Shown: positions 4,367-60,249 of the stretch, piece by piece
Numbering within the stretch: position 1 is the stretch's first letter
Layout: each line of letters starts with the position of its first letter
From: a virus
IMG/VR virus record: IMGVR_UViG_3300036832_000855
Span: 32,001 to 96,000 of that record
Length of the DNA: 64,000 nucleotides
Direction: 5' to 3' (one strand)
Position numbers and translations under genes: made by a program
The notes under the pieces: generated by a model
Databases searched by the model: none
Seen by the model: the letters and a program-made list of their open reading frames with translations, nothing else
Told to the model about the DNA's origin: nothing

Positions 4367-4854
4367 GCGGATGCTTCGATCGCCTCGCGAACAGCAACCG
4401 CGAGGTCGAACGTCCACTCCTCTTCGAGTGCCCGCTGCCGGTTGCTCAGCTCCGAGATCTCTCGGCGTAACTGCACCAGCTCGCCGCGGGCCTCCTCCGT
4501 CATGTCGCCGCGGTAAACGGCCGATGCCCGGTATCCGGACGACGGGAGCTGCTCGGTGTCGCCGTCGAAGACCGCGAGCACGTTGCCGGTGCCCGCGTGG
4601 AACCCGGTCGCGGTGCCCCGCTCGAACGACGTGAAGCGGTCCGTCAGCCGGTAGAACGGCACGTTGGTCTTCACCTTGCGCTGCCGGACTTGCGGCTTCG
4701 CCCGCTCGATGGCCTCGCTGAACGTGCCGCTGTTCGCGAGCGCTCGCGCGTCCTCGTCTTCAGCATGCCCGCGCAGGAACACCTCGAAGGTGCCGCCGGT
4801 GCTCACATGGACCTCACACGGCACGGTGAGGATTTCGACTTCTGTCAGTTTCAC
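4363..4854 (-). CDS. Hypothetical protein
   Basis: GTG at 4854 preceded by GACCGAGGAG. Confidence 0.7.
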   Translation of the reverse strand: MKLTEVEILTVPCEVHVSTGGTFEVFLRGHAEDEDARALANSGTFSEAIERAKPQVRQRKVKTNVPFYRLTDRFTSFERGTATGFHAGTGNVLAVFDGDTEQLPSSGYRASAVYRGDMTEEARGELVQLRREISELSNRQRALEEEWTFDLAVAVREAIEASA

Positions 4855-4889
4855 TGCTGTACTCCTCGGTCTAGGGGTTGCCGCGAGCG

Positions 4890-4927: not shown

Positions 4928-4977
4928 GTAAGTGCGCCCGGAGAAGGCGCGCTCCCCCCGACCGAGGAGGTACTGAA

Positions 4978-5637
4978 GTGGAAGTCATCCGGAGAACCAA
5001 CCCGGGTGCCTATCGTCAACCCCGCTGGCACTACGCTGCCGACGCAGAGTCTACACGCACGATGTGCGGTAAGGACGTCGCCGAGATCAAGGGCGATCGT
5101 CGAGGCTCGTGGAACCGGCCGCGGATCGAGCGCAAGGACGAGGCGGACCGCGGCTACAGCGGGATCTGCGCCGTCTGCACGCGCAAGGCGCACGGCGGCG
5201 GCGGCTCGGTGAAGCTCACCGTGGCCGACATGAAGGCGCTCGTCGCACGCGCGGCTGAGGCTGGCGAGAAGGCATACCGGGACGCGATCCCGACCCCGAT
5301 GGTGGTCTACACCCCGAAGAACATGATGGCCTCCCTGATGGGCGGCGATGATGGCGGGGCCGACCCCAACGAGCCGGTGTACAACGTCCCCGAGGGCGTG
5401 TGCGGCACGGCCTGGGTCAACATCAAGCCCGGCGGCTCACGGTTCGCCCGGTTCATCCTGAAGGAAGGGCTGGGCCGGTCCGACAGTTACCGAGGTGGGG
5501 TGAACCTCTCGCCCGCGAAAATCTGCGGCGACAGAGGCTCACAGTCACTCACCCGCTGGGAAGCAGCGGCCCACGCGATCGCGGATGTGCTCCGCGACGG
5601 CGGGATCACCGCCTACAGCGAGTCGTGGATGACATGA
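4978..5637 (+). CDS. Hypothetical phage protein
   Basis: GTG at 4978 after CCGACCGAGGAGG; first gene of rightward early operon. Confidence 0.75.
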   Translation: MEVIRRTNPGAYRQPRWHYAADAESTRTMCGKDVAEIKGDRRGSWNRPRIERKDEADRGYSGICAVCTRKAHGGGGSVKLTVADMKALVARAAEAGEKAYRDAIPTPMVVYTPKNMMASLMGGDDGGADPNEPVYNVPEGVCGTAWVNIKPGGSRFARFILKEGLGRSDSYRGGVNLSPAKICGDRGSQSLTRWEAAAHAIADVLRDGGITAYSESWMT

Positions 5638-10469: not shown

Positions 10470-10510
10470 CGCACAACGCGTGCTATCCTCAGTCGAAATC
10501 GACCGAGGAG
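10469..10510 (+). promoter_or_regulatory. Cassette: GCGCAC-AAC-GCGTGC, -10 TATCCT, GACCGAGGAG
   Basis: Same arrangement as the other cassettes. Confidence 0.65.
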
Positions 10511-10515
10511 TACCG

Positions 10516-10800
10516 ATGGATAAGCAGTCACCGCGCCAGCGCAACCACCGCCTGGTCACCCACAACGTCCCGCTGACCTGGCAGGGGCCAGGCGACGTCC
10601 ACGACACCATGGAGCGCGACATCTGGCGCGAGCTGGGCAAGGCGATCATCGACGTAGACGAACAGCTTGCGGAGCTGGCCGGATGGCACAGCACCGAGGT
10701 GAGCCGACTCATCCGGAAGGTGAACCGGCTGCGCGAGATGGCCGACAAGGCGTACGAGTGGCACGCGGGAAGGCCCGTACCGACCAAGGAGGCGTCGTGA
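10516..10800 (+). CDS. Hypothetical protein
   Basis: ATG 5 nt after GACCGAGGAG. Confidence 0.7.
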   Translation: MDKQSPRQRNHRLVTHNVPLTWQGPGDVHDTMERDIWRELGKAIIDVDEQLAELAGWHSTEVSRLIRKVNRLREMADKAYEWHAGRPVPTKEAS

Positions 10801-15635: not shown

Positions 15636-15762
15636 GGAGCGGGCGAGGACGGTCGGGACACGGACGGCACTCTACGCTCGATCTGAGACGTGTTGGTACT
15701 TCGATTCAGATGACGTCCGATCCACCTGCTTGCATCCCTCCTCCCGACCGAGGAGACACCAC

Positions 15763-16971
15763 GTGACGATCGCGCGTACGCCTTACCCCAGGGCGCTGGA
15801 GGAGTTTCCGGCTGTCCGCCAGAGCACCCTGTCGGACTTCGACGAGTGCGGCCTGGAGAGCCTGTTCGAGCGCCGCTACCGCAAGTCGTTCTCGGACGCG
15901 GCGTCCGGACGCGGGATCATCTGGCACCGGGCGGCGGCGAAGATGCTGCGCGAGATGGCCGCCCAGGGCGAGGAGCGCCTGGAGGTCGACGTCGGCCTCG
16001 CGATCATGCTGGAGACGCTGAGGCAGACCGACGTGCCGATCGAGGAGATGGTCACCTGCCCGATGAAGGAGATCCACGACCTGCTGTGGATGACGAAGAA
16101 GTTCTGCTCGGAGAAGACCTGGTCGATCGAGCGGCTCGTGTCGGTCGAGGAGCGCCTGGCGGCGACGCTGTACTACCCGAACCCGTACGGGGGGCAGGTT
16201 GAGCGGATCTTCTCCGGACAGCTCGACGCACTGTTCGCGGAGGGCGAGAACCTGGAGCGCGGGATCGTGGTGGACTGGAAAACTGGCTGGTGGCTGCCGC
16301 CGCCGTCGGAGATCTCCGAGGCGGGCTTCTTCCAGCAGCGCTCGTACGCGCTGCTCGGCTTCCGCAACCACTCGCCGTTCACGTCGATCACGTTGTACGA
16401 GTTCTACCCGCGCTACTCGCAGGCGCGCGAGGCGACGCTGTACCGCGACCAGCTCGACGAGATCGAGCTGACGATGTCCGCGCTGGTCGAGCGGTTCGAC
16501 CGGTCGGTGGAGGAGGACACGTGGCACGCGAGCCCCGGCAACCACTGCGGACACTGTCCGCGGCCGATGGCCTGCCCGATCTTCCCGAAGGCCCGGCGCC
16601 GGGGTGCGATCCGCTCCGCGGAGGAGGCAGAGCTGGCGGTCGAGCAGGTGCTGGTCGGCGAGAAGGCGATCGCCCAGAACAAGGAGGCCCTGAAGGCGTG
16701 GGCGCACGTTCACGGGCCGGTGCCCGTCCGCGACGCCAAGGCCAACCGGGTGTACGGCCACCGCGTACAGAAGCGTACGCGTCGGCCGACGAAGGAGGAG
16801 ACGGCGAACGCGCTGGCCCTCGGGCAGTCGCCCGAGGATCTCTACCGTGACGAGATCGGCACACGCTTCGACATCCACATCCCGAAGATCGAGCTGGAAC
16901 CAGAGCCGGACCTGGAGGAGCTGCTGCGGCAGTCCCTGGAGCTGGCAGAACAGAGGAGACGTAATGGCTGA
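15763..16971 (+). CDS. PD-(D/E)XK exonuclease (RecB/Cas4-like)
   Basis: GQLD...VVDWKTG...QQRSY...CGHCPRPMACP; GTG after CCCGACCGAGGAG. Confidence 0.85.
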   Translation: MTIARTPYPRALEEFPAVRQSTLSDFDECGLESLFERRYRKSFSDAASGRGIIWHRAAAKMLREMAAQGEERLEVDVGLAIMLETLRQTDVPIEEMVTCPMKEIHDLLWMTKKFCSEKTWSIERLVSVEERLAATLYYPNPYGGQVERIFSGQLDALFAEGENLERGIVVDWKTGWWLPPPSEISEAGFFQQRSYALLGFRNHSPFTSITLYEFYPRYSQAREATLYRDQLDEIELTMSALVERFDRSVEEDTWHASPGNHCGHCPRPMACPIFPKARRRGAIRSAEEAELAVEQVLVGEKAIAQNKEALKAWAHVHGPVPVRDAKANRVYGHRVQKRTRRPTKEETANALALGQSPEDLYRDEIGTRFDIHIPKIELEPEPDLEELLRQSLELAEQRRRNG

Positions 16972-17899
16972 GACCGAGGTAAGGCCAGAGCCCGAGAGCA
17001 AGATGGTGGTGCGGGCGGTGCCCACGCCGCTGACCAAACCGGCGCGGTTCGCGTTCGACAACGAGCAGCTCGCGCTGATGAAGCGGACCGTCGCCCGCGG
17101 CGCTGACGACAACGCGTTCCTGCTGTTCCTGGAGCTGATCGGCAGATACAAGCTCGACCCGTTCGCCGGGCACGCGTACCTGGCGAAGATGCCGGGGCAG
17201 GACGGCGAGCCGCCGACGTTCAAGACGATCATCGCTCGCGACGGGCTGCTGGCGATCGCCAACCGGTACGAGGACTTCGGCGGCCTCGAAGGCGACGTGA
17301 TCTACGCCACCGACACGATCGCCCGCACCAAGGACGGCTTCGTCCACCTGTACCCGGAGATCGCCGCCGCCGAGCGGCTGAAGCAGGACATCGTCGGCGC
17401 GTGGTGCCGGTGCTTCCGCGCGGGCCGGGTGCCCACGTTCTTCCTGGCGAAGTGGGCGAGCTACAACCGCCCGAACATGAAGCGCACCTGGGGCAAGTAC
17501 CCGGACGCGATGATCCTGAAGGTGGCCGAGTCGATGGCGCTGCGCAAGCAGTTCTCGATCACGGGCATGATCCCCGAGGACGAGATCGGTGCGCGCTACG
17601 ACGACAAGCTCGGCGGGATCGTCGAAGGGACCGCGACCGTGATCGAGCAGGAGCCCGACTGGGGCCCGGACGACGAGATCGCCCAGCAGCTTCAGGTCGC
17701 GTTCAGCGAGGCGAACCGGATCCGGCCGGGGAGCTTCCTGCCGCAGAAGGTCCGGCTGAAGCTCGCCGGGGCCGACCAGGCGACGCGCATGGGGATCCTC
17801 CAGGAGGTCACCGACTTCGTGCTGAAGCACGGCGGCTCGCTACCCATTGAGGGCGAAGCCGTCGAGGATGCCCCTGAGGGCGCAGGGGAAGCCGTCTGA
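16964..17899 (+). CDS. bet: Bet/RecT-family single-strand annealing recombinase
   Basis: LDPFAGHAY...IIARDGLLAIANR...GAWC...WGKYPDAMILKVAESMALRKQF. Confidence 0.88.
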   Translation: MAETEVRPEPESKMVVRAVPTPLTKPARFAFDNEQLALMKRTVARGADDNAFLLFLELIGRYKLDPFAGHAYLAKMPGQDGEPPTFKTIIARDGLLAIANRYEDFGGLEGDVIYATDTIARTKDGFVHLYPEIAAAERLKQDIVGAWCRCFRAGRVPTFFLAKWASYNRPNMKRTWGKYPDAMILKVAESMALRKQFSITGMIPEDEIGARYDDKLGGIVEGTATVIEQEPDWGPDDEIAQQLQVAFSEANRIRPGSFLPQKVRLKLAGADQATRMGILQEVTDFVLKHGGSLPIEGEAVEDAPEGAGEAV

Positions 17900-17937
17900 G
17901 CGCCTCCGAGCGCCTCCCCCTACCCACGGGTCACCCT

Positions 17938-18023
17938 GCAGAAACGGCCGCCTAAGGGCGGCCGTTTCGTGAGACGCGAGCGTTCAATCCCGACCGAGGA
18001 GTGAGGGCCGCTCGCGTTCTCGT
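17938..18023 (-). ncRNA. Candidate sRNA: stem-loop presenting CUCCUCGGUC, followed by terminator
   Basis: -10 TATCCT at 18033-18028; stem GAGA(A)CGCGAGCG/CGCUCGCGUCUC; loop antisense to the GACCGAGGAG motif. Confidence 0.55.
17941..17968. terminator. Bidirectional intrinsic terminator
   Basis: GAAACGGCCGCC-TAAG-GGCGGCCGTTTC between convergent bet and tail-fibre genes. Confidence 0.85.
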
Positions 18024-18060
18024 GCTCAGGATACACGAGACGCGCGCCGATTCGGCCGTT

Positions 18061-19224
18061 TCACGTCTTGATCAGGTACGTCGCGGCGACCCAGGGCTGC
18101 ATCACGTTGTGCGCAGCGCCGCCGCCGTCGTTGTTGATCGGGTGGGTGTGGCGAGTGTTCGCGCCGCCCGACTGGGCGCTCCACGTGTGGGTGTGGTTGG
18201 CGCTGATCCCACCCGTCTGGGCGCTGAACGAGTGCGCGTGGCGCGCGGTCGCTCCACTGGTGCCCGATCCACCGCCGATCGTTGCGCAACCCTGCCCGCC
18301 GGACTGGGTGACGGGCGAGTTGCTCGGGGACAGCGCCAGGTTGTGCGCGTGGTCCGGGCTGTCGGTCCCCGTGGTACCCGAAACGGCGTGCGAGTGATCG
18401 CTGCTCACGTAGCTGGTGGTCCCCGAGCTGTAGTGCGAGTGGTCGGGCGTGTCGTTCCCGGTGCTCGCGCCGTGCGCGTGGACCGGCATCTCGGCGTTCG
18501 CGAGCAGGTGGGTCTCCTCGCCGCCCTTGCTGGCGAGCACCCGGCTCGTCAGGCCCGCACCCTGCCCGGCGCCGATGGGAGCGCGGCCACGGAAGTCTGG
18601 AAGGGCAAACGTGGTCGATCCATCGCCTTGCCCCCACGGTGAAGTAGTGCCGCCAAGCGCCGCGTACAGCGCCGGAAAGGTAGTGCGACTCACCGTGGAG
18701 CCGTCGCACACGAGCCATCCGGCAGGCGGGGTCTGGCAGGCGGTCAACTTGATGTCCCCGGGCTGCCAGAGCTGCGCGCCGTCGACACCGCCGTCCACGA
18801 GCTGGCGCAGGTTTGTGATGCGCGTCCCATCGAAGATCGCCTCGCCGATCTTGCGGTAATGCGGCGTCGCCGGGGTGCCGGTCAGCAGCGCCGTCAGCGC
18901 GAACGTGTAGTCGGTCGAGTCGGTCTCGGGCGGCGGCGGCGTCGGGTTGGTCGCGAACGAGTTGTTGCCGGTGGTCGCGAAGATGCTGTAGGTCCCGGCC
19001 GCGCCGGTGACGGTCGTCTGGACGGTCGCGGAGACATAGCGCCACAGGCCGTCGATCCCGAGCGACACCTGGGCGTTACCGACGCCCGCGGCGATCTGGA
19101 CCTGATTGGAGCCGATCTGCGTCAGGAACAGGTTGCGGCTGCTCACACCGACAAACTCCTGGAGCGCGTCCAGGAAGTCCTGCGGGATCGGACTGCCGTA
19201 GCTGAGCTGCCGGTGCTTGCTCAC
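18061..19224 (-). CDS. Tail fibre with tail-collar domain and HxH needle
   Basis: PAGWLVCDGSTVSRTTFPALY...TFALPDFRGR; repeated HxH; HNVMQPWVAATYLIKT end. Confidence 0.85.
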   Translation of the reverse strand: MSKHRQLSYGSPIPQDFLDALQEFVGVSSRNLFLTQIGSNQVQIAAGVGNAQVSLGIDGLWRYVSATVQTTVTGAAGTYSIFATTGNNSFATNPTPPPPETDSTDYTFALTALLTGTPATPHYRKIGEAIFDGTRITNLRQLVDGGVDGAQLWQPGDIKLTACQTPPAGWLVCDGSTVSRTTFPALYAALGGTTSPWGQGDGSTTFALPDFRGRAPIGAGQGAGLTSRVLASKGGEETHLLANAEMPVHAHGASTGNDTPDHSHYSSGTTSYVSSDHSHAVSGTTGTDSPDHAHNLALSPSNSPVTQSGGQGCATIGGGSGTSGATARHAHSFSAQTGGISANHTHTWSAQSGGANTRHTHPINNDGGGAAHNVMQPWVAATYLIKT

Positions 19225-20336
19225 AGGGTGCCTCCGATGTTCGTGATGCCGACGAAGAAGCCATCCGAATACCCCTCGGTGATCGCCAGGTGCGCGGGCG
19301 TGAGATCGCGGATGAACGGCCAGCCGAAGCCCGCGTACGCCTGCGGGATCTTGATCGAAACCGTGTTCGCAGGTGGGGAGTTCGTCTGGGTGCTGGAGCT
19401 GTTGCCTGGCGTGCCCGTCCAGGTGCCGTTCAGATCCCCCGAGAAGTAGGCGGGGGCGGTTGCCCCGAGCAGCGCGAGTGCGGAGTCGACGTAAACGGTC
19501 TGCGCAGGGGTCACCGTGAACTGGATACACGCCGTGACGTTGGTGCGGTTCGCGGTCGGCGTCCACGTCGTCGTGTACCGCGTCCACGCGGTCGTCAGCA
19601 CATTGTTGGCGCTTGTGCCGAGATCGCCGCCGACGCCCAGGATGACGGCTGCTCGCTCACCACCAGCGTTGCCCTTCAGGTAGACCGCGAACGTGTACGT
19701 GACCCCTGCGGTGAAGGTGCCCGGCAGAAGTACCTCAGCGCCCTCGGCAGCAAGCGAGCCGTTCGACACGATCCGCATGGTGTTGTTGCCCGACTGCGCC
19801 GCGCCGGTCTGGCAGGTGAGGGCTGCTCCGACGTTGTTGAAGTTGCGCGACGCCGCCCACGCAGCAGGCGCCGCGCCGACCGTGTCGTGCTCGAAGCTCG
19901 GGTTCGGGATGAGGTTCGTGTAGTCCGTCGCCGGGTTGTGCTCCTGGTAGGACCAGCTCGTGCCGAACAGCGCGGTGATGCTGGCCTCCCAGTCCAGGCC
20001 GCGCCCCTGGCCCTTGAGCCGCCGCATGGTCGCGAGCGCGAGCTGCTGGCGGGCGGCGAGCGTCAGCCCGGGCGGGTTGATCGGCAGGCCGAGGAGCTGC
20101 TCGAACATCGGCAGCAGCGCGTCGGCGCTGGCCGGAAGGAAGTTCAGGATCACTGCCTGGCGTGCCTGTTCGAGCCGCAGCAGCTCGTTCGCGACGACCT
20201 CCAGGACCGTCTGGACCTCGTAGGCCGAGCGTTCGAACGGCGGCACCTCGCTGAGCAGATCGGCCGGATCCTCGTCGACCTGCGCCATGGTGCCGGGGCC
20301 GAACACCGCAAGCGGATCGGTCACGGTCACCGACAT
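19221..20336 (-). CDS. Baseplate wedge protein (gpI/XkdU-like) with inserted carbohydrate-binding module
   Basis: ADALLPMFEQLLGLP...; NLIPNPSFE...YVDSA insert; PAHL C-terminus; follows gpJ. Confidence 0.7.
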   Translation of the reverse strand: MSVTVTDPLAVFGPGTMAQVDEDPADLLSEVPPFERSAYEVQTVLEVVANELLRLEQARQAVILNFLPASADALLPMFEQLLGLPINPPGLTLAARQQLALATMRRLKGQGRGLDWEASITALFGTSWSYQEHNPATDYTNLIPNPSFEHDTVGAAPAAWAASRNFNNVGAALTCQTGAAQSGNNTMRIVSNGSLAAEGAEVLLPGTFTAGVTYTFAVYLKGNAGGERAAVILGVGGDLGTSANNVLTTAWTRYTTTWTPTANRTNVTACIQFTVTPAQTVYVDSALALLGATAPAYFSGDLNGTWTGTPGNSSSTQTNSPPANTVSIKIPQAYAGFGWPFIRDLTPAHLAITEGYSDGFFVGITNIGGTL

Positions 20337-31889: not shown

Positions 31890-33227
31890 TCACCCCACCA
31901 GGGTCACGAGTTTCGAGTTCGCAGCAACAGCCGTGCCGTACGTGATCGTCACGTCCCCGTTGGCGGCAACGCTGATGTCGGGGATCTCGACGTTGCCGCT
32001 GGTGTTGTCCTGCACCTGCACGAGGATGCCCCGGCCCGAGCGCAGACCGTGCGTGGCCTGGGTGATCGTGATCGTGGCGCCCGCGCCGTGCGTGGCGTTG
32101 TTGTTGTAGTAGCCGCCCGCGAGCAGCCCGGTCTCGCGCGCCGCCTTGGCCGTCGTCTGACTGGTGCCGCCGTTAGCAAGCGGCAGTGTGCCTGTGACCA
32201 CCGCGCTCGACAGGACCACCGAGCCGTTGGCGTGCATCGCCGCCGTGACCCCGCCCGCCTTGATCTCCAGGCTGGAGCCTGCGCCCGCCGTGTCGATGCT
32301 GGCGTTGTCCACCAGCGCGCTGATCGTGTTCCCCGCCTTCGTCAGACCCGCCCCGGCGGTGATCTGGTAGGCGCCGGTGAACTGCACCCAGGTCACGGCC
32401 GTGGTGTTGAGCGTGCCGCCGGGGTCGGCGGTGCAGACCCAGCCGCTGTCGGACTGGCCGCCCTGCTCGACCCAGCAGTAGGCCGAGATCATCTCGGTCC
32501 AGGAGTCGTTATCGGCCGCGCGCACCCAAGCGCCCGTGGCGGCCACGTAGATCCCGTTCTGGCTCGTCGTCGTCTGGTTCTTGACGAGCACGCGGTCGTT
32601 CGCGAGCGTGGTGTACCCGTCGATGGCTTGCAGCCCAGACAGCGTGATGTTGGCGGTTGTGGCGCACACGACGGCCTGCTTGGCGGTCAGCCCCGCGGCG
32701 ACGCTGTCGACGTAGTTCTTGGTGGCGGCGTCCTGCGCGACGCTCGGGTCGGCCAGCGTGGTGATCCGCTGCGAGCCGAACGACACCGGCGCGGTCGGAG
32801 CTACGAGCTGGTCGATGCGGCCGTTGCCTGGGAACGCCTGCTGCGCACCCAGCCCGAGCGTCCGCATCGAGTAGGTGCCGACGATCCCGTCCTTGTTCGC
32901 GCCCGCCACGTCAACATCGGTGATCGTGCCGTCGAGGATCTTGGCCGAGGTGACCGCACCGTTCGCGATCGTTGGCGTGGTGGCGCTGCCCGTCAGATCC
33001 CCGGCGAGCTGGATAACGCCCTTGCTCCCGGTCGTCGCGTCCGGTGGGGAATACCCGCCCAGCGCGCTGATCCACGCGGACCCGTTCCACCACCACAGCG
33101 TGTTGTTCGCCGTGTTGTAGTAGAGCTGACCAGTGACCGGCGATGCGGGCGCCGTACCAAGCTGGTGGGCACGGAGCTGCTTACCCTCGTACTGACTGAA
33201 GTCAAGTGGTGCGCCGAGAACGGGCAT
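31890..33227 (-). CDS. Tail fibre / fibre adaptor
   Basis: DAATKNYVD; ATTANITLSGLQAIDG...DRVLVKNQT...NGIY. Confidence 0.8.
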   Translation of the reverse strand: MPVLGAPLDFSQYEGKQLRAHQLGTAPASPVTGQLYYNTANNTLWWWNGSAWISALGGYSPPDATTGSKGVIQLAGDLTGSATTPTIANGAVTSAKILDGTITDVDVAGANKDGIVGTYSMRTLGLGAQQAFPGNGRIDQLVAPTAPVSFGSQRITTLADPSVAQDAATKNYVDSVAAGLTAKQAVVCATTANITLSGLQAIDGYTTLANDRVLVKNQTTTSQNGIYVAATGAWVRAADNDSWTEMISAYCWVEQGGQSDSGWVCTADPGGTLNTTAVTWVQFTGAYQITAGAGLTKAGNTISALVDNASIDTAGAGSSLEIKAGGVTAAMHANGSVVLSSAVVTGTLPLANGGTSQTTAKAARETGLLAGGYYNNNATHGAGATITITQATHGLRSGRGILVQVQDNTSGNVEIPDISVAANGDVTITYGTAVAANSKLVTLVG

Positions 33228-51658: not shown

Positions 51659-51798
51659 GCGGCCGCTCCTTTCACGGCCACGTCGATAATGGCCGCGCCG
51701 TCCGCGTACTTCTTCAGCTTCGCGACAGCGGCCTCGACGGTCTTGCCCTTGCCGGACCGGATCGCTCCGGTGGCGAAGGTCACCTTCACCTTGATCAT
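51655..51798 (-). CDS. 47-aa protein MIKVKVTFATG... (not in ORF track)
   Basis: ATG after CCCGACCGAGGAGG; first gene of cassette. Confidence 0.65.
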   Translation of the reverse strand: MIKVKVTFATGAIRSGKGKTVEAAVAKLKKYADGAAIIDVAVKGAAA

Positions 51799-51803
51799 CT
51801 GGC

Positions 51804-51872
51804 CTCCTCGGTCGGGGGAGCGGGCTCACCGGCCCGCACCTACATCGTAGCACACGACGTGCGCTACGGCAA
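51804..51872 (-). promoter_or_regulatory. Full cassette: TTGCCG-N17-TACGAT with palindrome in the spacer, hairpin, CCGACCGAGGAG
   Basis: Read directly from sequence. Confidence 0.8.
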
Positions 51873-56232: not shown

Positions 56233-56468
56233 GACGCCTCCAACTCCGCTCGCGCGTCGGCCAGGCTGAGGAGCCGGTCGGGTCGGATCGGACGCAGTCC
56301 GGGCATGCCGGAAAGCTCGTACTCACGGATACGGACCACGTAGCCGTCCTCCTCGCCCCACTCCTCGGCCTTGGCGACGGCTTCGGCCAGTGTGTCGCGT
56401 TCGGTGAAGGTCGACTGCCGGGACCACTTCTGGGTCTTGCGGATCTCGTAGTACCTCGGTTTGGTCAT
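56229..56468 (-). CDS. Hypothetical protein
   Basis: ATG after CGACCGAGGAG. Confidence 0.65.
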   Translation of the reverse strand: MTKPRYYEIRKTQKWSRQSTFTERDTLAEAVAKAEEWGEEDGYVVRIREYELSGMPGLRPIRPDRLLSLADARAELEAS

Positions 56469-58282
56469 CGTGTCTCCTCGGTCGTGGTAGCCAGCTCCTT
56501 CGCGTCGAGCGACTCGACGAGCGCCTCGATCAGCTCGGGGCTGCTCTCGGCGGTCTGGACGAAGCTCTCGAACTGGAGGTGCCGCCAGGTGCTGTCGGGG
56601 TTGCTCCGGACGCGGTCGTAGATCGCGCGCAGGTCGGCGTGCTCGGCCTCGAAGGCCGCCTTCTCAGCGGCCCTCGCGGCGTCGGCCTCCTCGCGCGCCT
56701 TGATCGTGCAGGCGCAGATCTCGTTCTTCCGGCTGCCAGCCCGCTCGGGGTCCGGGCGGAGCTGCTCGCCGCAGTCCTCGCACACGGTGATGTCCTGGAC
56801 GGACGGCCCGTGCACCCGGGTGATCTCGGTCACCTTCGCGTCGTTCTGGTAGCTGTCCCGATCGTGCGACTTGACCGTGGCGGTCAGCTCGTAGGTGTGA
56901 CCCTGGTCGAGCCAGGTCCCGCCGGATGCCCACCAGATCAGCAGGTTCCCGTCGGCGTCGTGGCCCTTGGTGAGCTGCTTGGTGCCGTAGTGGCCCTCGA
57001 TCGTCTTGGTGAAGGTCACCGTGAAGACCAGGCCCTTCAGCCGCTGCTTCAGCTCGCCGATCCACTCCGAGTCAACCGCGACCCGCTCCTTGCGCTCGAA
57101 CTCCAGCCGGTCGCCCATCTCGCGCTTGCGCGCCTCGATCGTGTAAGCCACGAACCCGGAGCCCTTCGCGGGCACCCAGTCGGAGCGCGTGTAGGTCGCG
57201 AGGTTGTGCTGGAATTCGTCCAGCTCGTCGCGCTCGGCAAGATCCTCGCGGACCCACTCCAGCGCAGTGGCGGCTGCCTCGCGGTCCTCGTCGGTGACGG
57301 GGATCCGGTTCTTCTCCTTGCGCTCGAAGTAGTTGCTCTCGGCAACGTCCGCGGTCGCGTCGTAGTTCCGGTCGAAGTTCCCGTACCCGTCCTTGCGCCA
57401 GCGGCTGACCCAGCCCTTCTCGCGCGTGACGGCCGCGACGTTGGCCAGGAAGTCGAGCGTCCGCATCGCGATCCGCCCGCCGCCGCCGCCGACCTCGCTG
57501 TAGTCGCCGTCGCCGAGGTCGCTGTACAGCGCCTCAAGCCACTCGGCCCAGGCCGCGATGCGCTCGGGGTTGTGCGCGCCGGTGTAGTCGGCGACGCAGG
57601 TTGTGCCCACCTGGCGCAGCTCGCCGGTGGCGACCTCGAACAGCACATAGGTCTGGTTCCGGCGGCGCTTCCAGCCGCAGTGGACGCAGTCGGGGCGGGC
57701 CTGCCGGTAGTCGGTCAGGTCGGCGCTCTCGACCGCCAGCGCGGCCTCCTCGCCGATCCGGTCCTTGAGCCGCGTGCCGACCGGCGCCCGGCGGATGCCG
57801 ACGCCCATGTCGGCGCCCTCGTCGGCGTCGTGGTCCAAGGTCGCGACGAACACCCATCCGGCGATCATCGGCGTCTCGCCGTTGACCGTCACGAAGGTGT
57901 AGTCGACGATCCGCTCGACGCCGTCCTCCTTGAAGACATGCTGGTCGTGCTCGTTGGAGACGGTCAGCGCGATGGGCTCGGTGCCCAACTTGGCCGCCTT
58001 CTTGTTCAGCTTCTCGATCCGGGTGGCCAACTCGTCGAGCTTGGTGTCGACGACGCGGAAGACGGCGCCGCCGACTGCCTCGCGGAGGGCGGTCACCTCG
58101 ACAGCGAGCCGCTCGGCCTCGGCGCGGGCGTCCTTCACGTCAGGGTCCTTGAGCGTGTCGGCCCAGGTCACGCCCAGGCCAGTGTGTGAGTCGTACGCCC
58201 GGTTGCGCGCGTCGTACTCGCGCTCGCGGGCAAGCTCCAGCTCGCGCTGGCGCTCGTAAACGGTCTGCAGGGTGGTGGTCAT
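56465..58282 (-). CDS. Large hypothetical phage protein with CxHC motif and OB-fold-like C-terminal part
   Basis: CVHCGWKRRRN...QVGTTC; ELTATVKSH; ATG after CCGACCGAGGAG. Confidence 0.75.
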   Translation of the reverse strand: MTTTLQTVYERQRELELAREREYDARNRAYDSHTGLGVTWADTLKDPDVKDARAEAERLAVEVTALREAVGGAVFRVVDTKLDELATRIEKLNKKAAKLGTEPIALTVSNEHDQHVFKEDGVERIVDYTFVTVNGETPMIAGWVFVATLDHDADEGADMGVGIRRAPVGTRLKDRIGEEAALAVESADLTDYRQARPDCVHCGWKRRRNQTYVLFEVATGELRQVGTTCVADYTGAHNPERIAAWAEWLEALYSDLGDGDYSEVGGGGGRIAMRTLDFLANVAAVTREKGWVSRWRKDGYGNFDRNYDATADVAESNYFERKEKNRIPVTDEDREAAATALEWVREDLAERDELDEFQHNLATYTRSDWVPAKGSGFVAYTIEARKREMGDRLEFERKERVAVDSEWIGELKQRLKGLVFTVTFTKTIEGHYGTKQLTKGHDADGNLLIWWASGGTWLDQGHTYELTATVKSHDRDSYQNDAKVTEITRVHGPSVQDITVCEDCGEQLRPDPERAGSRKNEICACTIKAREEADAARAAEKAAFEAEHADLRAIYDRVRSNPDSTWRHLQFESFVQTAESSPELIEALVESLDAKELATTTEETR

Positions 58283-58286
58283 GAAT

Positions 58287-58355
58287 CTCCTCGGTCGGTC
58301 TCGCGGCCTCTCCCGGCCGCAAGTACATCATAGCACACGTCGTGCGTTAGCGCAA
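58287..58355 (-). promoter_or_regulatory. Full cassette: TTGCGC-N17-TATGAT, palindrome, hairpin, CCGACCGAGGAG
   Basis: Read directly from sequence. Confidence 0.8.
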
Positions 58356-58702: not shown

Positions 58703-59292
58703 TCCGCCCTCCGGTGCGGGTAGCGGGCCGAGCGATTGACATCCTCGGCCAGGTCGCTCAGCGACTGCTCGGTCGGCAGCGCCTCCAGCGCCGCCTTGGC
58801 CACAGCGGCCTCGCGCGCCCAGCGCTCGCGCTGCTCGTCCACCAGCCGGTAGAACGAGTCGCGGTTCTGCGGCCCGGGGATGTTCGGCATCCGCAGGTAG
58901 TGCCGGGCGACGTCGTAGTCGCTGCGGGTGTCGTCGGCACGCAGGTGCGTCCCCTTGCCGTCGTAGCTGGAGTACCAGTACCAGCCGTTGGCGTGCGCGT
59001 GCATCGGGACGCCGTCCGGATCGGACAGGTGCAGGTCCACGAAGCTCTTCAGCCCTGGGAAGGCCCGGAGGATCGCGTCGTGGTCAGCCCCGCCGCCGTC
59101 GGCGTCGCGGCCCTGTCGCTGGCGCGCGGCGCCCCGGGCGTTACTCCGGGCGTACCACACGTCGCAGGTGGCCGAGAAGCCGGGCGAGATCCCGTCCGCG
59201 TCGAAGCGCGAGCCTGGTGCGGCCTCGCGTAGCTCCAGGCTGACGACGATGCGATCGCCGTTCGCCATGTCGCGGGTCAGTGTGCGTTTCAT
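58696..59292 (-). CDS. Hypothetical phage protein (LHLSDPDGVPMH..ANGWY)
   Basis: ATG after CCGACCGAGGAGG. Confidence 0.7.
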   Translation of the reverse strand: MKRTLTRDMANGDRIVVSLELREAAPGSRFDADGISPGFSATCDVWYARSNARGAARQRQGRDADGGGADHDAILRAFPGLKSFVDLHLSDPDGVPMHAHANGWYWYSSYDGKGTHLRADDTRSDYDVARHYLRMPNIPGPQNRDSFYRLVDEQRERWAREAAVAKAALEALPTEQSLSDLAEDVNRSARYPHRRAEW

Positions 59293-59296
59293 GGTC

Positions 59297-59361
59297 CTCC
59301 TCGGTCGGTGGCGGCTTTATCGCCGCACCGGCATCATAACACACGACGTGCGCTAATTCAA
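59297..59361 (-). promoter_or_regulatory. Full cassette: TTGAAT-N17-TATGAT, palindrome, hairpin, CCGACCGAGGAG
   Basis: Read directly from sequence. Confidence 0.82.
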
Positions 59362-59879
59362 GAGGACTTCGCTGCTGACTTCGCGTGGCTGGCGGCCTTC
59401 TTGGCCTCCCACTGGGCCAGCGCCTTGGCCGCCGCCGCCCTGACCTCGGGACGAACCTTGCCGCCACCGGCAGCCCAGCGCTTCATGATCGCGATCGCCG
59501 ACGCGATCGCCGCCGACTCGGACTTGCCGGACTTCATGATGCCCTTCGCGACGTTCTGGATGTAGGGCGGCAGCCCACCCACCCGGGCGATCCAGTTGCT
59601 CGTCTTGCTCGCCGAGAATGGTGACGGCGTGACGCTGTACCCGGCCGTCTTGGCGGACTCCTGGAGCGGCGGGGCCGACTCCTCGGGAGTGCCCCTGAGG
59701 ACCCCGGGGAGCCACCCTGCGGCCCGTTCGTCAAAAGCCTGGTACCAGGCCTCCTGGGCCTCGACGTTCGCCTTCAGGGCCCGCAGATGGGCCAGTGCTC
59801 GGGCGTGCGTCGGGTGCCGCTTGACCAGCGCGCCGGTGTCGGCCCGGACGACGTCGTTGCCCTGGACGGTGTACGGCAT
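59358..59879 (-). CDS. Putative head-internal protein (GGLPPYI...AIA.A basic domain)
   Basis: Basic helical domain; AQEA and LQES motifs. Confidence 0.6.
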   Translation of the reverse strand: MPYTVQGNDVVRADTGALVKRHPTHARALAHLRALKANVEAQEAWYQAFDERAAGWLPGVLRGTPEESAPPLQESAKTAGYSVTPSPFSASKTSNWIARVGGLPPYIQNVAKGIMKSGKSESAAIASAIAIMKRWAAGGGKVRPEVRAAAAKALAQWEAKKAASHAKSAAKSS

Positions 59880-59880
59880 G

Positions 59881-60249
59881 TCACGCCGCGGCGGCGGTGC
59901 CCCAGGTGTCGGGCAGCAGAGAGGTCAGCTTCAGCCGCTTGGCCATCGCGATGATGTGCGCCTTGATCGCCGCCTTGTCCGGCGGGTTGCCGCGGCCGAA
60001 CGCTTTGATCGCAGCCTTGAGGTCGCCGACGTGCTTGATCGGGTAGCGCCCGCCGGGCATCGCATGCCCCTTCTTCTCCAGCGTGGCGCGCTCCTTGGTC
60101 GAGACGTCGCGCTCCTCAAGCTGGCGGCGGAGCACTCGCTCGCGCGCGCGAGCACGCACGAAGTCGGTCGAGTTGGCCGCTTCCTGGCGGTCCAGGACGG
60201 CCTCCTGGAGCCGGTACCAGGGATCCGGTGCGGGTTCAAGCAGAGTCAC
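59881..60249 (-). CDS. Putative head-internal protein (DUF6582-like MPGGRYPI...DLKAAI domain)
   Basis: GTGA-coupled, SD AAGGAG; motif recalled from phage head-associated proteins. Confidence 0.6.
   Translation of the reverse strand: MTLLEPAPDPWYRLQEAVLDRQEAANSTDFVRARARERVLRRQLEERDVSTKERATLEKKGHAMPGGRYPIKHVGDLKAAIKAFGRGNPPDKAAIKAHIIAMAKRLKLTSLLPDTWGTAAAA

Follow-up and report, generated by a model that had tools for sequence, protein, structure and literature searches.

A conserved intergenic hairpin of an uncultured phage carries the mirror copy of a ribosome-site tag: a candidate antisense RNA

The locus and its hairpin

The stretch of DNA considered in this study (the window) comprises 64,000 nucleotides, bases 32001-96000, of the IMG/VR virus record IMGVR_UViG_3300036832_000855. 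Its subject is a hairpin at the end of a tail-fibre gene, the loop of which mirrors, i.e. is antisense to, a short sequence (the tag) found at the ribosome-binding sites of many genes of the same genome. The genome is 122,419 bp long, has 68 % G+C and is classed in IMG/VR as having direct terminal repeats. The source is an uncultured phage of the myovirus type with a genome of about 122 kb. No close isolate was found: a megablast search of positions 17300-18700 against isolated phages gave no match, and for the baseplate J protein the best matches among isolated phages were at most 36 % identical.

The hairpin locus sits between two converging units. On the minus strand, which is the strand of the predicted RNA, its upstream neighbour is the last tail-fibre gene (18061-19587; phage tail collar domain, Pfam PF07484, E 3.7e-19) with the stop codon TGA at 18063-18061. 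This gene is part of a minus-strand virion block (18061-51000) with capsid, baseplate and fibre genes recognised by their Pfam families. On the plus strand, an operon with the genes of a PD-(D/E)XK exonuclease and RecT (15763-17899; PF12705 and PF03837) converges on the tail-fibre unit. The G+C content at third codon positions (GC3) of real genes in the window is 0.80-0.95.

The predicted small RNA is about 84 nt long (17938-18021, minus strand) and consists of a main hairpin and a terminator hairpin, with a model fold of -50.5 kcal/mol; the order of its parts is kept in relatives. The main hairpin (17971-18021) has a 12-bp stem, with the arms GAGAACGCGAGCG at 18021-18009 and CGCUCGCGUCUC at 17982-17971, and a 26-nt loop (17983-18008). 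The loop carries CUCCUCGGUCGGG (18001-17989), the minus-strand mirror of the conserved plus-strand 16-mer AATCCCGACCGAGGAG (17986-18001), which is an orphan copy of the tag. The hexamer TATCCT (18028-18033, minus strand), which resembles a -10 box of the form TAnnnT, stands 7 nt ahead of the stem. The second hairpin (17941-17968) can be read on both strands; it is GC-rich, symmetric, 12 bp long, flanked by AAA and TTT, and reads GAAACGGCCGCC-CUUA-GGCGGCCGUUUC on the minus strand. It is probably a two-way terminator common to the tail-fibre unit and the converging recT operon. An earlier reading of the window from its letters (the original prediction) had described such a layout of hairpin, terminator and TATCCT after the tail-fibre stop, and both the minus-strand reading and the folds bear it out. 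A further small hairpin, CUCGUG/CACGAG (18019-18039, minus strand), is predicted with TATCCT in its loop and would need RNA reading in from the tail-fibre gene. It is visible also in one relative (L031) and missing from some others.

The fold energy of a 111-nt stretch at the locus is -58 kcal/mol for the minus strand (z -4.8) and -58.4 kcal/mol for the plus strand (z -5.0), and none of 200 shuffled sequences was as stable on either strand. In the model RNA running from 18021 to 17938 (84 nt) the apical CGGUC of the loop is unpaired (p about 0.9). Nothing in Rfam came near its threshold in positions 17000-19000, the best scores being 15-19 bits compared to gathering scores of 34-90 bits.

The ribosome-site tag and its orphan copy

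The core of the tag, GACCGAGGAG, occurs in nine exact copies in the window compared to 0.48 expected, and none of 100 shuffles reached nine. The whole genome contains 35 exact copies of it and 22 of the 12-mer CCGACCGAGGAG, while the reversed-pattern controls gave none. A start codon lies 2-10 nt downstream (mostly 4-6) of 28 of the 35 copies; six are inside long open reading frames (ORFs), mostly of high GC3, and one is the orphan. The spacing between tag and start codon is tight across the genome. In the 28 start-associated copies the preceding base is C in 25 cases at position -1, in 20 at position -2 and in 15 at position -3, and because of the frequent C at position -1 we take (C)CCGACCGAGGAG as the working tag. 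The tag contains a GGAG Shine-Dalgarno core, located 4-9 nt ahead of the start codon. Only this GGAG part would pair with an actinobacterial 16S rRNA 3' end.

Eight of the nine copies in the window are followed by ATG or GTG at a distance of 4-8 nt and head ORFs of 47-605 codons. All eight starts for which the motif had been predicted were found to have it. On the plus strand these are the copies at 4960-4969 (GTG at 4978, 219 codons), 10501-10510 (ATG at 10516, 94 codons) and 15746-15755 (start of the exonuclease at 15763). On the minus strand they are at 4862-4871 (GTG at 4854, 163 codons), 51804-51813 (ATG at 51798, 47 codons), 56474-56483 (ATG at 56468, 79 codons), 58287-58296 (ATG at 58282, 605 codons) and 59297-59306 (ATG at 59292, 198 codons). 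No tagged start was found on the minus strand in the virion block 18061-51000. Among the tagged genes is that of the PD-(D/E)XK exonuclease.

The ninth copy, at 17992-18001 on the plus strand, has no start codon 2-13 nt downstream and is the sole intergenic start-less copy among the 35 of the genome, in agreement with the claim that it alone lacks a properly spaced start. The loop is exactly complementary to the eight tags in the window over 10-14 nt, as read from the flanks of the sites; the original prediction had given 11-14 nt. When the loop was paired computationally with every window of the genome, the median duplex energy was -14.8 and 3767 of the 34968 windows reached -20 or lower, a background too broad to be informative.

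Two ORFs overlapping the element were rejected as genes. The plus-strand ORF 18001-18642 begins within the tag and is antisense to the tail-fibre gene, and the GC3 of its enclosing frame is 0.62 compared to 0.80-0.95 in real genes. In line with the original prediction, no plus-strand gene uses the orphan copy as a ribosome-binding site. A 38-codon minus-strand ORF (17920-18036) was tried as a small protein, and it has no in-frame start in 10 of the 16 sequences of the phage family described below.

The tag also has neighbours and variants. A variant with one base changed, GACCAAGGAG (A type), is found at 10782-10791 (plus strand) before the GTG at 10797 in this otherwise G-type phage. It has one C.A mismatch with the loop and may be a naturally weaker target. 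This site had been listed as a near match together with sites before 3458 and 62940, neither of which is among the sites with at most one substitution; the one by 62940 looks like a variant with a one-base insertion on the minus strand. Ahead of many tags stands a GC hairpin whose loop is rich in purines, followed by a run of C, and together these form a repeated cassette of about 40 nt (e.g. 4930-4960, 51815-51840, 58298-58325 and 59308-59330 in the window, and further sites in the genome). The C-run of the cassette may pair with the GGAG of the tag. In its build the cassette resembles the extended start-associated sequences of the Cluster K phages discussed below. In addition, in ten clear promoters of the form TTGnnn-17-TAnnnT, four of them in the window (4074, 10156, 51856 and 58339) and six outside it, the spacer and the extended -10 region are spanned by the near-palindrome TAGCGCACG-n-CGTGTGCTA. 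Several of these promoters head tagged genes, and the near-palindrome is probably the operator of one repressor governing many operons.

Conservation and joint change of loop and tag

Relatives were gathered by searches with RecT and baseplate J and by exact-pattern scans of IMG/VR and metagenome contigs. The G-type family consists of 16 non-identical sequences, including the window. The 16-mer AATCCCGACCGAGGAG is invariant in 15 of them, with one copy per contig, and the remaining sequence (L003) has 15 of the 16 bases, so the loop is conserved in relatives as had been anticipated. The order of the parts is constant in the family: the terminator hairpin is followed by the 16-mer with a stem arm to each side of it, and then come a TAnnnT box, which is on the opposite strand, and the tail-fibre stop. 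Stem sequences vary from subgroup to subgroup and still pair, as GCUGAG/CUCAGC, GCCGAG/CUCGGC or GUCGAG/CUCGAC. Both partners are changed in 3 of the 19 pairs of group A and in 4 of the 18 of group B; for groups B and C taken together the figure is 3 of 13. Because the loop is fixed while the stems vary but remain paired, the loop is selected for its sequence and the stem for pairing. In 15 of the 16 sequences the TAnnnT box is found 34-50 nt upstream of the core; L020 lacks it. The large relatives have 33, 32, 25 and 10 copies of the tag, and the reversed control gave none.

The family was further extended by scans of metagenome and genome contigs with a 21-mer, which added L075/L084 and L077 and possibly L078; the matches L080 and L082 were duplicates, and L085/L093 and L087 lie outside the family. 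No prophage or host for the phage family was found in these scans. The same 21-mer was also observed within the coding sequence of a single conserved gene, found in named Rhizobiales genomes and plasmids as well as on metagenome contigs (L074, L076, L079, L081, L083, L086, L088-L092 and L094-L097), which is unrelated to the phage element. The 21-mer alone is therefore not specific. When IMG/VR was scanned for loops that differ in their middle bases, only known loci and chance matches in low-GC phages came up.

A profile search with baseplate J led further, to G006 (46 % identity) and G007 (42 % over 140 residues), both of them distant relatives. All nine start-associated tags of G006 are of the A type, GACCAAGGAG, and its four copies of GACCGAGGAG are all intragenic. 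The G-type 12-mer CCGACCGAGGAG is present 22, 20, 23, 18 and 0 times in G000, G001, G002, G003 and G006, respectively, and the A-type 12-mer CCGACCAAGGAG is present 1, 1, 0, 1 and 11 times in the same genomes. At 19396-19405 of G006 there is a copy that lacks a start codon. Read along the flanking genes' strand, this site gives a stem, a loop with CUCCUUGGUCGGG, the second side of the stem and a long terminator hairpin with a U-rich tail, and TAGCCT stands 8 nt ahead of the stem. In G007, where 12 tagged starts are of the A type and three of the G type, the gap after the tail genes holds a 9-bp stem and a loop with CCUUGGUCGGG, with TAAGAT upstream and a terminator hairpin downstream, all on the gene strand. 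The loops of both phages carry the C-to-U change that matches the A-type tag. A G-type tag is accordingly accompanied by a C-type loop in G000-G003 and at 12 more loci, and an A-type tag by a U-type loop in G006 and G007, which is the covariation of loop and tag that the original prediction had suggested as a check.

The neighbours of the G006 hairpin have no homology to the tail fibre or the exonuclease of the window. An ORF between its tail genes and the hairpin (G006:18872-19309, plus strand, L108), likewise not homologous to the tail fibre of the window, has an H-N-H-like pattern of histidines and cysteines when read by eye and may be an inserted homing nuclease. G006 also has a second start-less A-type copy (32907-32916, plus strand, L109), in the orientation of the tag and right after a very strong hairpin, with no ATG, GTG or TTG 2-10 nt downstream.

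These comparisons bear on two simpler explanations of the locus. One is that the orphan arose by chance or once served as the ribosome site of a gene since lost. It is indeed an exact copy of the tag without a gene, but only 0.48 copies are expected per window, and this copy is invariant in relatives with diverged flanks, is always in a hairpin and covaries with the tag. We regard such an origin as extremely improbable. The other is that a minus-strand RNA element is present which does not regulate in trans. It could stabilise the 3' end of the tail-fibre mRNA or be its second terminator, or it could serve in replication or packaging as single-stranded DNA or as a cruciform. Its position directly adjoining the terminator at the end of a late operon, the folding of both strands and the lack of a promoter passing the consensus scan would all agree with this. 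Loops of terminators and stabilisers are not expected to be conserved, however; in this element it is the stems that drift and the loop that stays invariant, and the loop follows the tag when the tag changes. A purely structural role is in our opinion quite unlikely. By sequence comparison, the element is a real, conserved and non-coding hairpin unit, the loop of which mirrors and tracks a private ribosome-binding tag.

Parallels in other phages and proposed action

A comparable tag is known from other phages. Pope et al. (2011) described a 13-bp start-associated sequence (SAS) in Cluster K mycobacteriophages, and in the available text its partner was left open as 'either RNA or protein' (PMC3203893). 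The SAS and its extended form (ESAS) are reported for Cluster K mycobacteriophages and Cluster EF Microbacterium phages (PMC3203893, PMC7302621, PMC11373665, PMC12699233). In the available text of these papers neither a function nor an RNA partner is given, and those of 2024 and 2025 still call the role unknown. In the 2025 survey, covering 188 Cluster K genomes, the terms antisense, hairpin and sRNA (small RNA) do not occur. No published mirror RNA for start-associated tags was found in full-text literature searches, subscription papers and supplements being outside their scope. The SAS and the phage tag have in common an asymmetric motif of 12-13 nt with a Shine-Dalgarno core, placed a few nucleotides before many starts, those of non-structural genes in the case of the SAS and probably also in that of the tag. 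As far as the SAS papers describe it, the SAS is conserved far beyond the needs of a ribosome site, as the tag may be, and like the tag it is often preceded by a promoter or inverted repeat. The motif sequences themselves are unrelated, and the two are thus analogous systems with different elements.

The Cluster K phage Anaya, of an independent lineage, has 16 forward SAS copies and one reverse site, which lies in the 385-bp gap between genes 96 and 97. Read on the transcribed strand, this reverse SAS is the loop in a long hairpin; the surrounding 201 nt fold with z -4.7, and the region is conserved in 157 Cluster K records. An alignment was made of 13 Cluster K phages, of which Yuna, Keshu and SirPhilip were dropped as their hairpin is lost or changed. 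The consensus fold of the remaining ten sequences was -24.0 on the transcribed strand compared to -9.7 on the other, with 21 G.U cells compared to one A.C, which identifies it as an RNA structure on the mirror strand. The Cluster K1 phages share the mirror-in-hairpin layout of the window phage, and the parallel with the SAS drawn in the original prediction is therefore apt. A clean covariation of loop and tag was not found within Cluster K.

The Anaya region (L059 48790-48990, i.e. 59789-59989 of the Anaya record) was observed to be a structured intergenic region of about 200 nt with several hairpins, which is annotated as a hypothetical protein in some Cluster K records. The reverse SAS is the loop of its second hairpin in K1 phages; in DarthP, Amgine and Unicorn that loop is C/U-rich and resembles an anti-Shine-Dalgarno sequence.

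We propose, with moderate confidence, that the minus-strand RNA of about 84 nt pairs with the tag and blocks translation. Its source would be either transcription from the TAnnnT box that follows the tail-fibre stop or the late tail-fibre mRNA, extended by read-through and then processed. Read-through is judged as likely a source as an own promoter, because the TAnnnT box has no -35 region, scan match or operator. The open apex CGGUC could start the pairing, and the duplex would then extend along 10-14 nt of the tag, GGAG included. This would bar 30S subunits from the tagged mRNAs, and the whole tagged set of about 28 probably non-structural genes would be lowered together. The RNA would rise with late transcription; its place behind the tail genes makes the period of late gene expression its most likely time of action. 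The tag, the hairpin, their conservation and their covariation were computed, and from them we infer the transcription and ends of the small RNA, its pairing in the cell, the repression and its timing.

Several observations weigh against this proposal. The small RNA is a prediction from sequence and model folds, and one RNA would need to serve about 28 mRNAs. In the model fold the mirror bases flanking the apical CGGUC are weakly paired, and opening them would cost 5.5 kcal/mol. A sigma-70 consensus scan of 17700-18300 found no promoter, and TATCCT has neither a -35 region nor the palindromic operator of the ten clear promoters of the phage, which leaves the promoter function assigned to it in the original prediction unsupported. 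A terminator scan of the same region found none, the 17941-17968 hairpin with only three U failing the T-run rule. The tagged genes had been called early, and none of the six tagged proteins tested belongs to a Pfam family, which gives no support to that class. The covariation of tag and loop is one base change, possibly from a single event, and it is equally expected if the same-sense copy is the one that matters. In DarthP and Unicorn the K tag is unchanged and the homologous loops are C/U-rich and only partly complementary to it. The Microbacterium phage AnnaSerena (Cluster EF) has ten forward tags and no mirror copy; a reverse match with three mismatches was considered as its mirror and rejected, as it sits in an apparently ordinary terminator stem. 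Folding, finally, leaves the strand undecided within the family. The summed energies are -450.7 on the motif strand compared to -422.4 on the other, the group consensus energies of the two strands are -25.6/-20.5, -24.8/-23.6 and -22.5/-24.0, and L003 and L031 have A.C mismatches on the mirror strand, the strand of the proposed RNA.

An alternative, which the original prediction had named in the form of a plus-strand decoy, is a same-sense function, in which a plus-strand RNA, or either nucleic acid, would show the start-less tag as a decoy or operator and titrate or load a tag-binding protein or the 30S subunit. On the motif strand the fold is as stable as on the other or slightly more so, only there do L003 and L031 have G.U pairs, and the orphan retains AAT beyond the part common to most tags. 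The covariation would fit equally, and Pope et al. left open whether RNA or protein is the partner of the SAS (PMC3203893). On the other hand, the plus-strand copy lies past the recT terminator, and in G006, G007 and Anaya its strand is antisense to all flanking genes. The structure in Cluster K is specific to the mirror strand, and there is one copy per genome, unlike in known multi-site decoys. CsrB-type decoys, for instance, have many binding motifs in the loops of one RNA, whereas the window family has one 16-mer per contig. Further indications on the strand come from group C, in which three G.U positions are workable on the mirror strand alone, and from the window itself, where the main hairpin precedes the terminator only when read on the minus strand, from the tail-fibre side. 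In G006 and G007 the flanking genes are co-directional with the mirror copy, and the opposite strand is antisense to everything nearby. The TAnnnT box present in 15 of the 16 family sequences is likewise on the mirror strand. Judged from this arrangement, the context favours the mirror (minus) strand, and we consider a same-sense decoy unlikely.

It is also conceivable that the RNA pairs with the tag with an outcome other than repression, for example by protecting or processing the tagged mRNAs or by competing with a host factor. The pairing potential would be the same as for repression, and many tags follow hairpins, which are possible processing sites. The duplex would, however, cover the GGAG core 4-9 nt before the start, and known antisense control blocks initiation; the probability of such an outcome appears to be low.

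The proposed repression by pairing has relatives among known systems. In antisense control, a duplex over the ribosome site blocks initiation. The RegA repressor of phage T4 acts at the ribosome sites of many early mRNAs and stops their translation; RegA is a protein, while the factor proposed here is a predicted RNA and its targets have an exact shared tag. Bacterial sRNAs with C-rich loops pair with Shine-Dalgarno regions, and some sRNAs arise from the 3' ends of mRNAs. They are similar to the window element in having a hairpin and terminator, an exposed C/U-rich loop and a location at an operon end, but they have cellular mRNA targets and short generic seeds. The c4 antisense RNA of phages P1 and P7 is, according to a review (PMC12197685), a small phage RNA with loops complementary to the ribosome-binding region of a phage mRNA, the translation of which it blocks. 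It acts on one operon (ant), whereas the loop of the window phage would match about 28 dispersed genes via the shared tag, and the two have no sequence relation. The stoperators of Cluster A mycobacteriophages, with which the SAS is contrasted in PMC3203893, are asymmetric repressor sites in intergenic regions with no fixed spacing to starts, while the spacing of the window tag is tight. In kind the proposed mechanism would belong to the antisense RNA control of ribosome sites, which is already known; no description of a shared tag with a single mirror RNA came up in the full-text literature searches.

Tailed phages in general could switch translation by RNA only, with a private tag of 12-13 nt for each lineage and one mirror hairpin RNA that masks it, a possibility that we put forward tentatively and with somewhat less than even expectation. 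If true, the tag/mirror pair would provide a small, orthogonal module for translation control in high-GC hosts, and the switch would do with an RNA what T4 RegA and other translational repressors do as proteins. A conserved mirror in a hairpin loop, changing with the tag, offers a concrete partner and mechanism for the SAS. A general switch of this kind would explain the function of the Cluster K SAS, which has been open since 2011, in phages that can be cultured.

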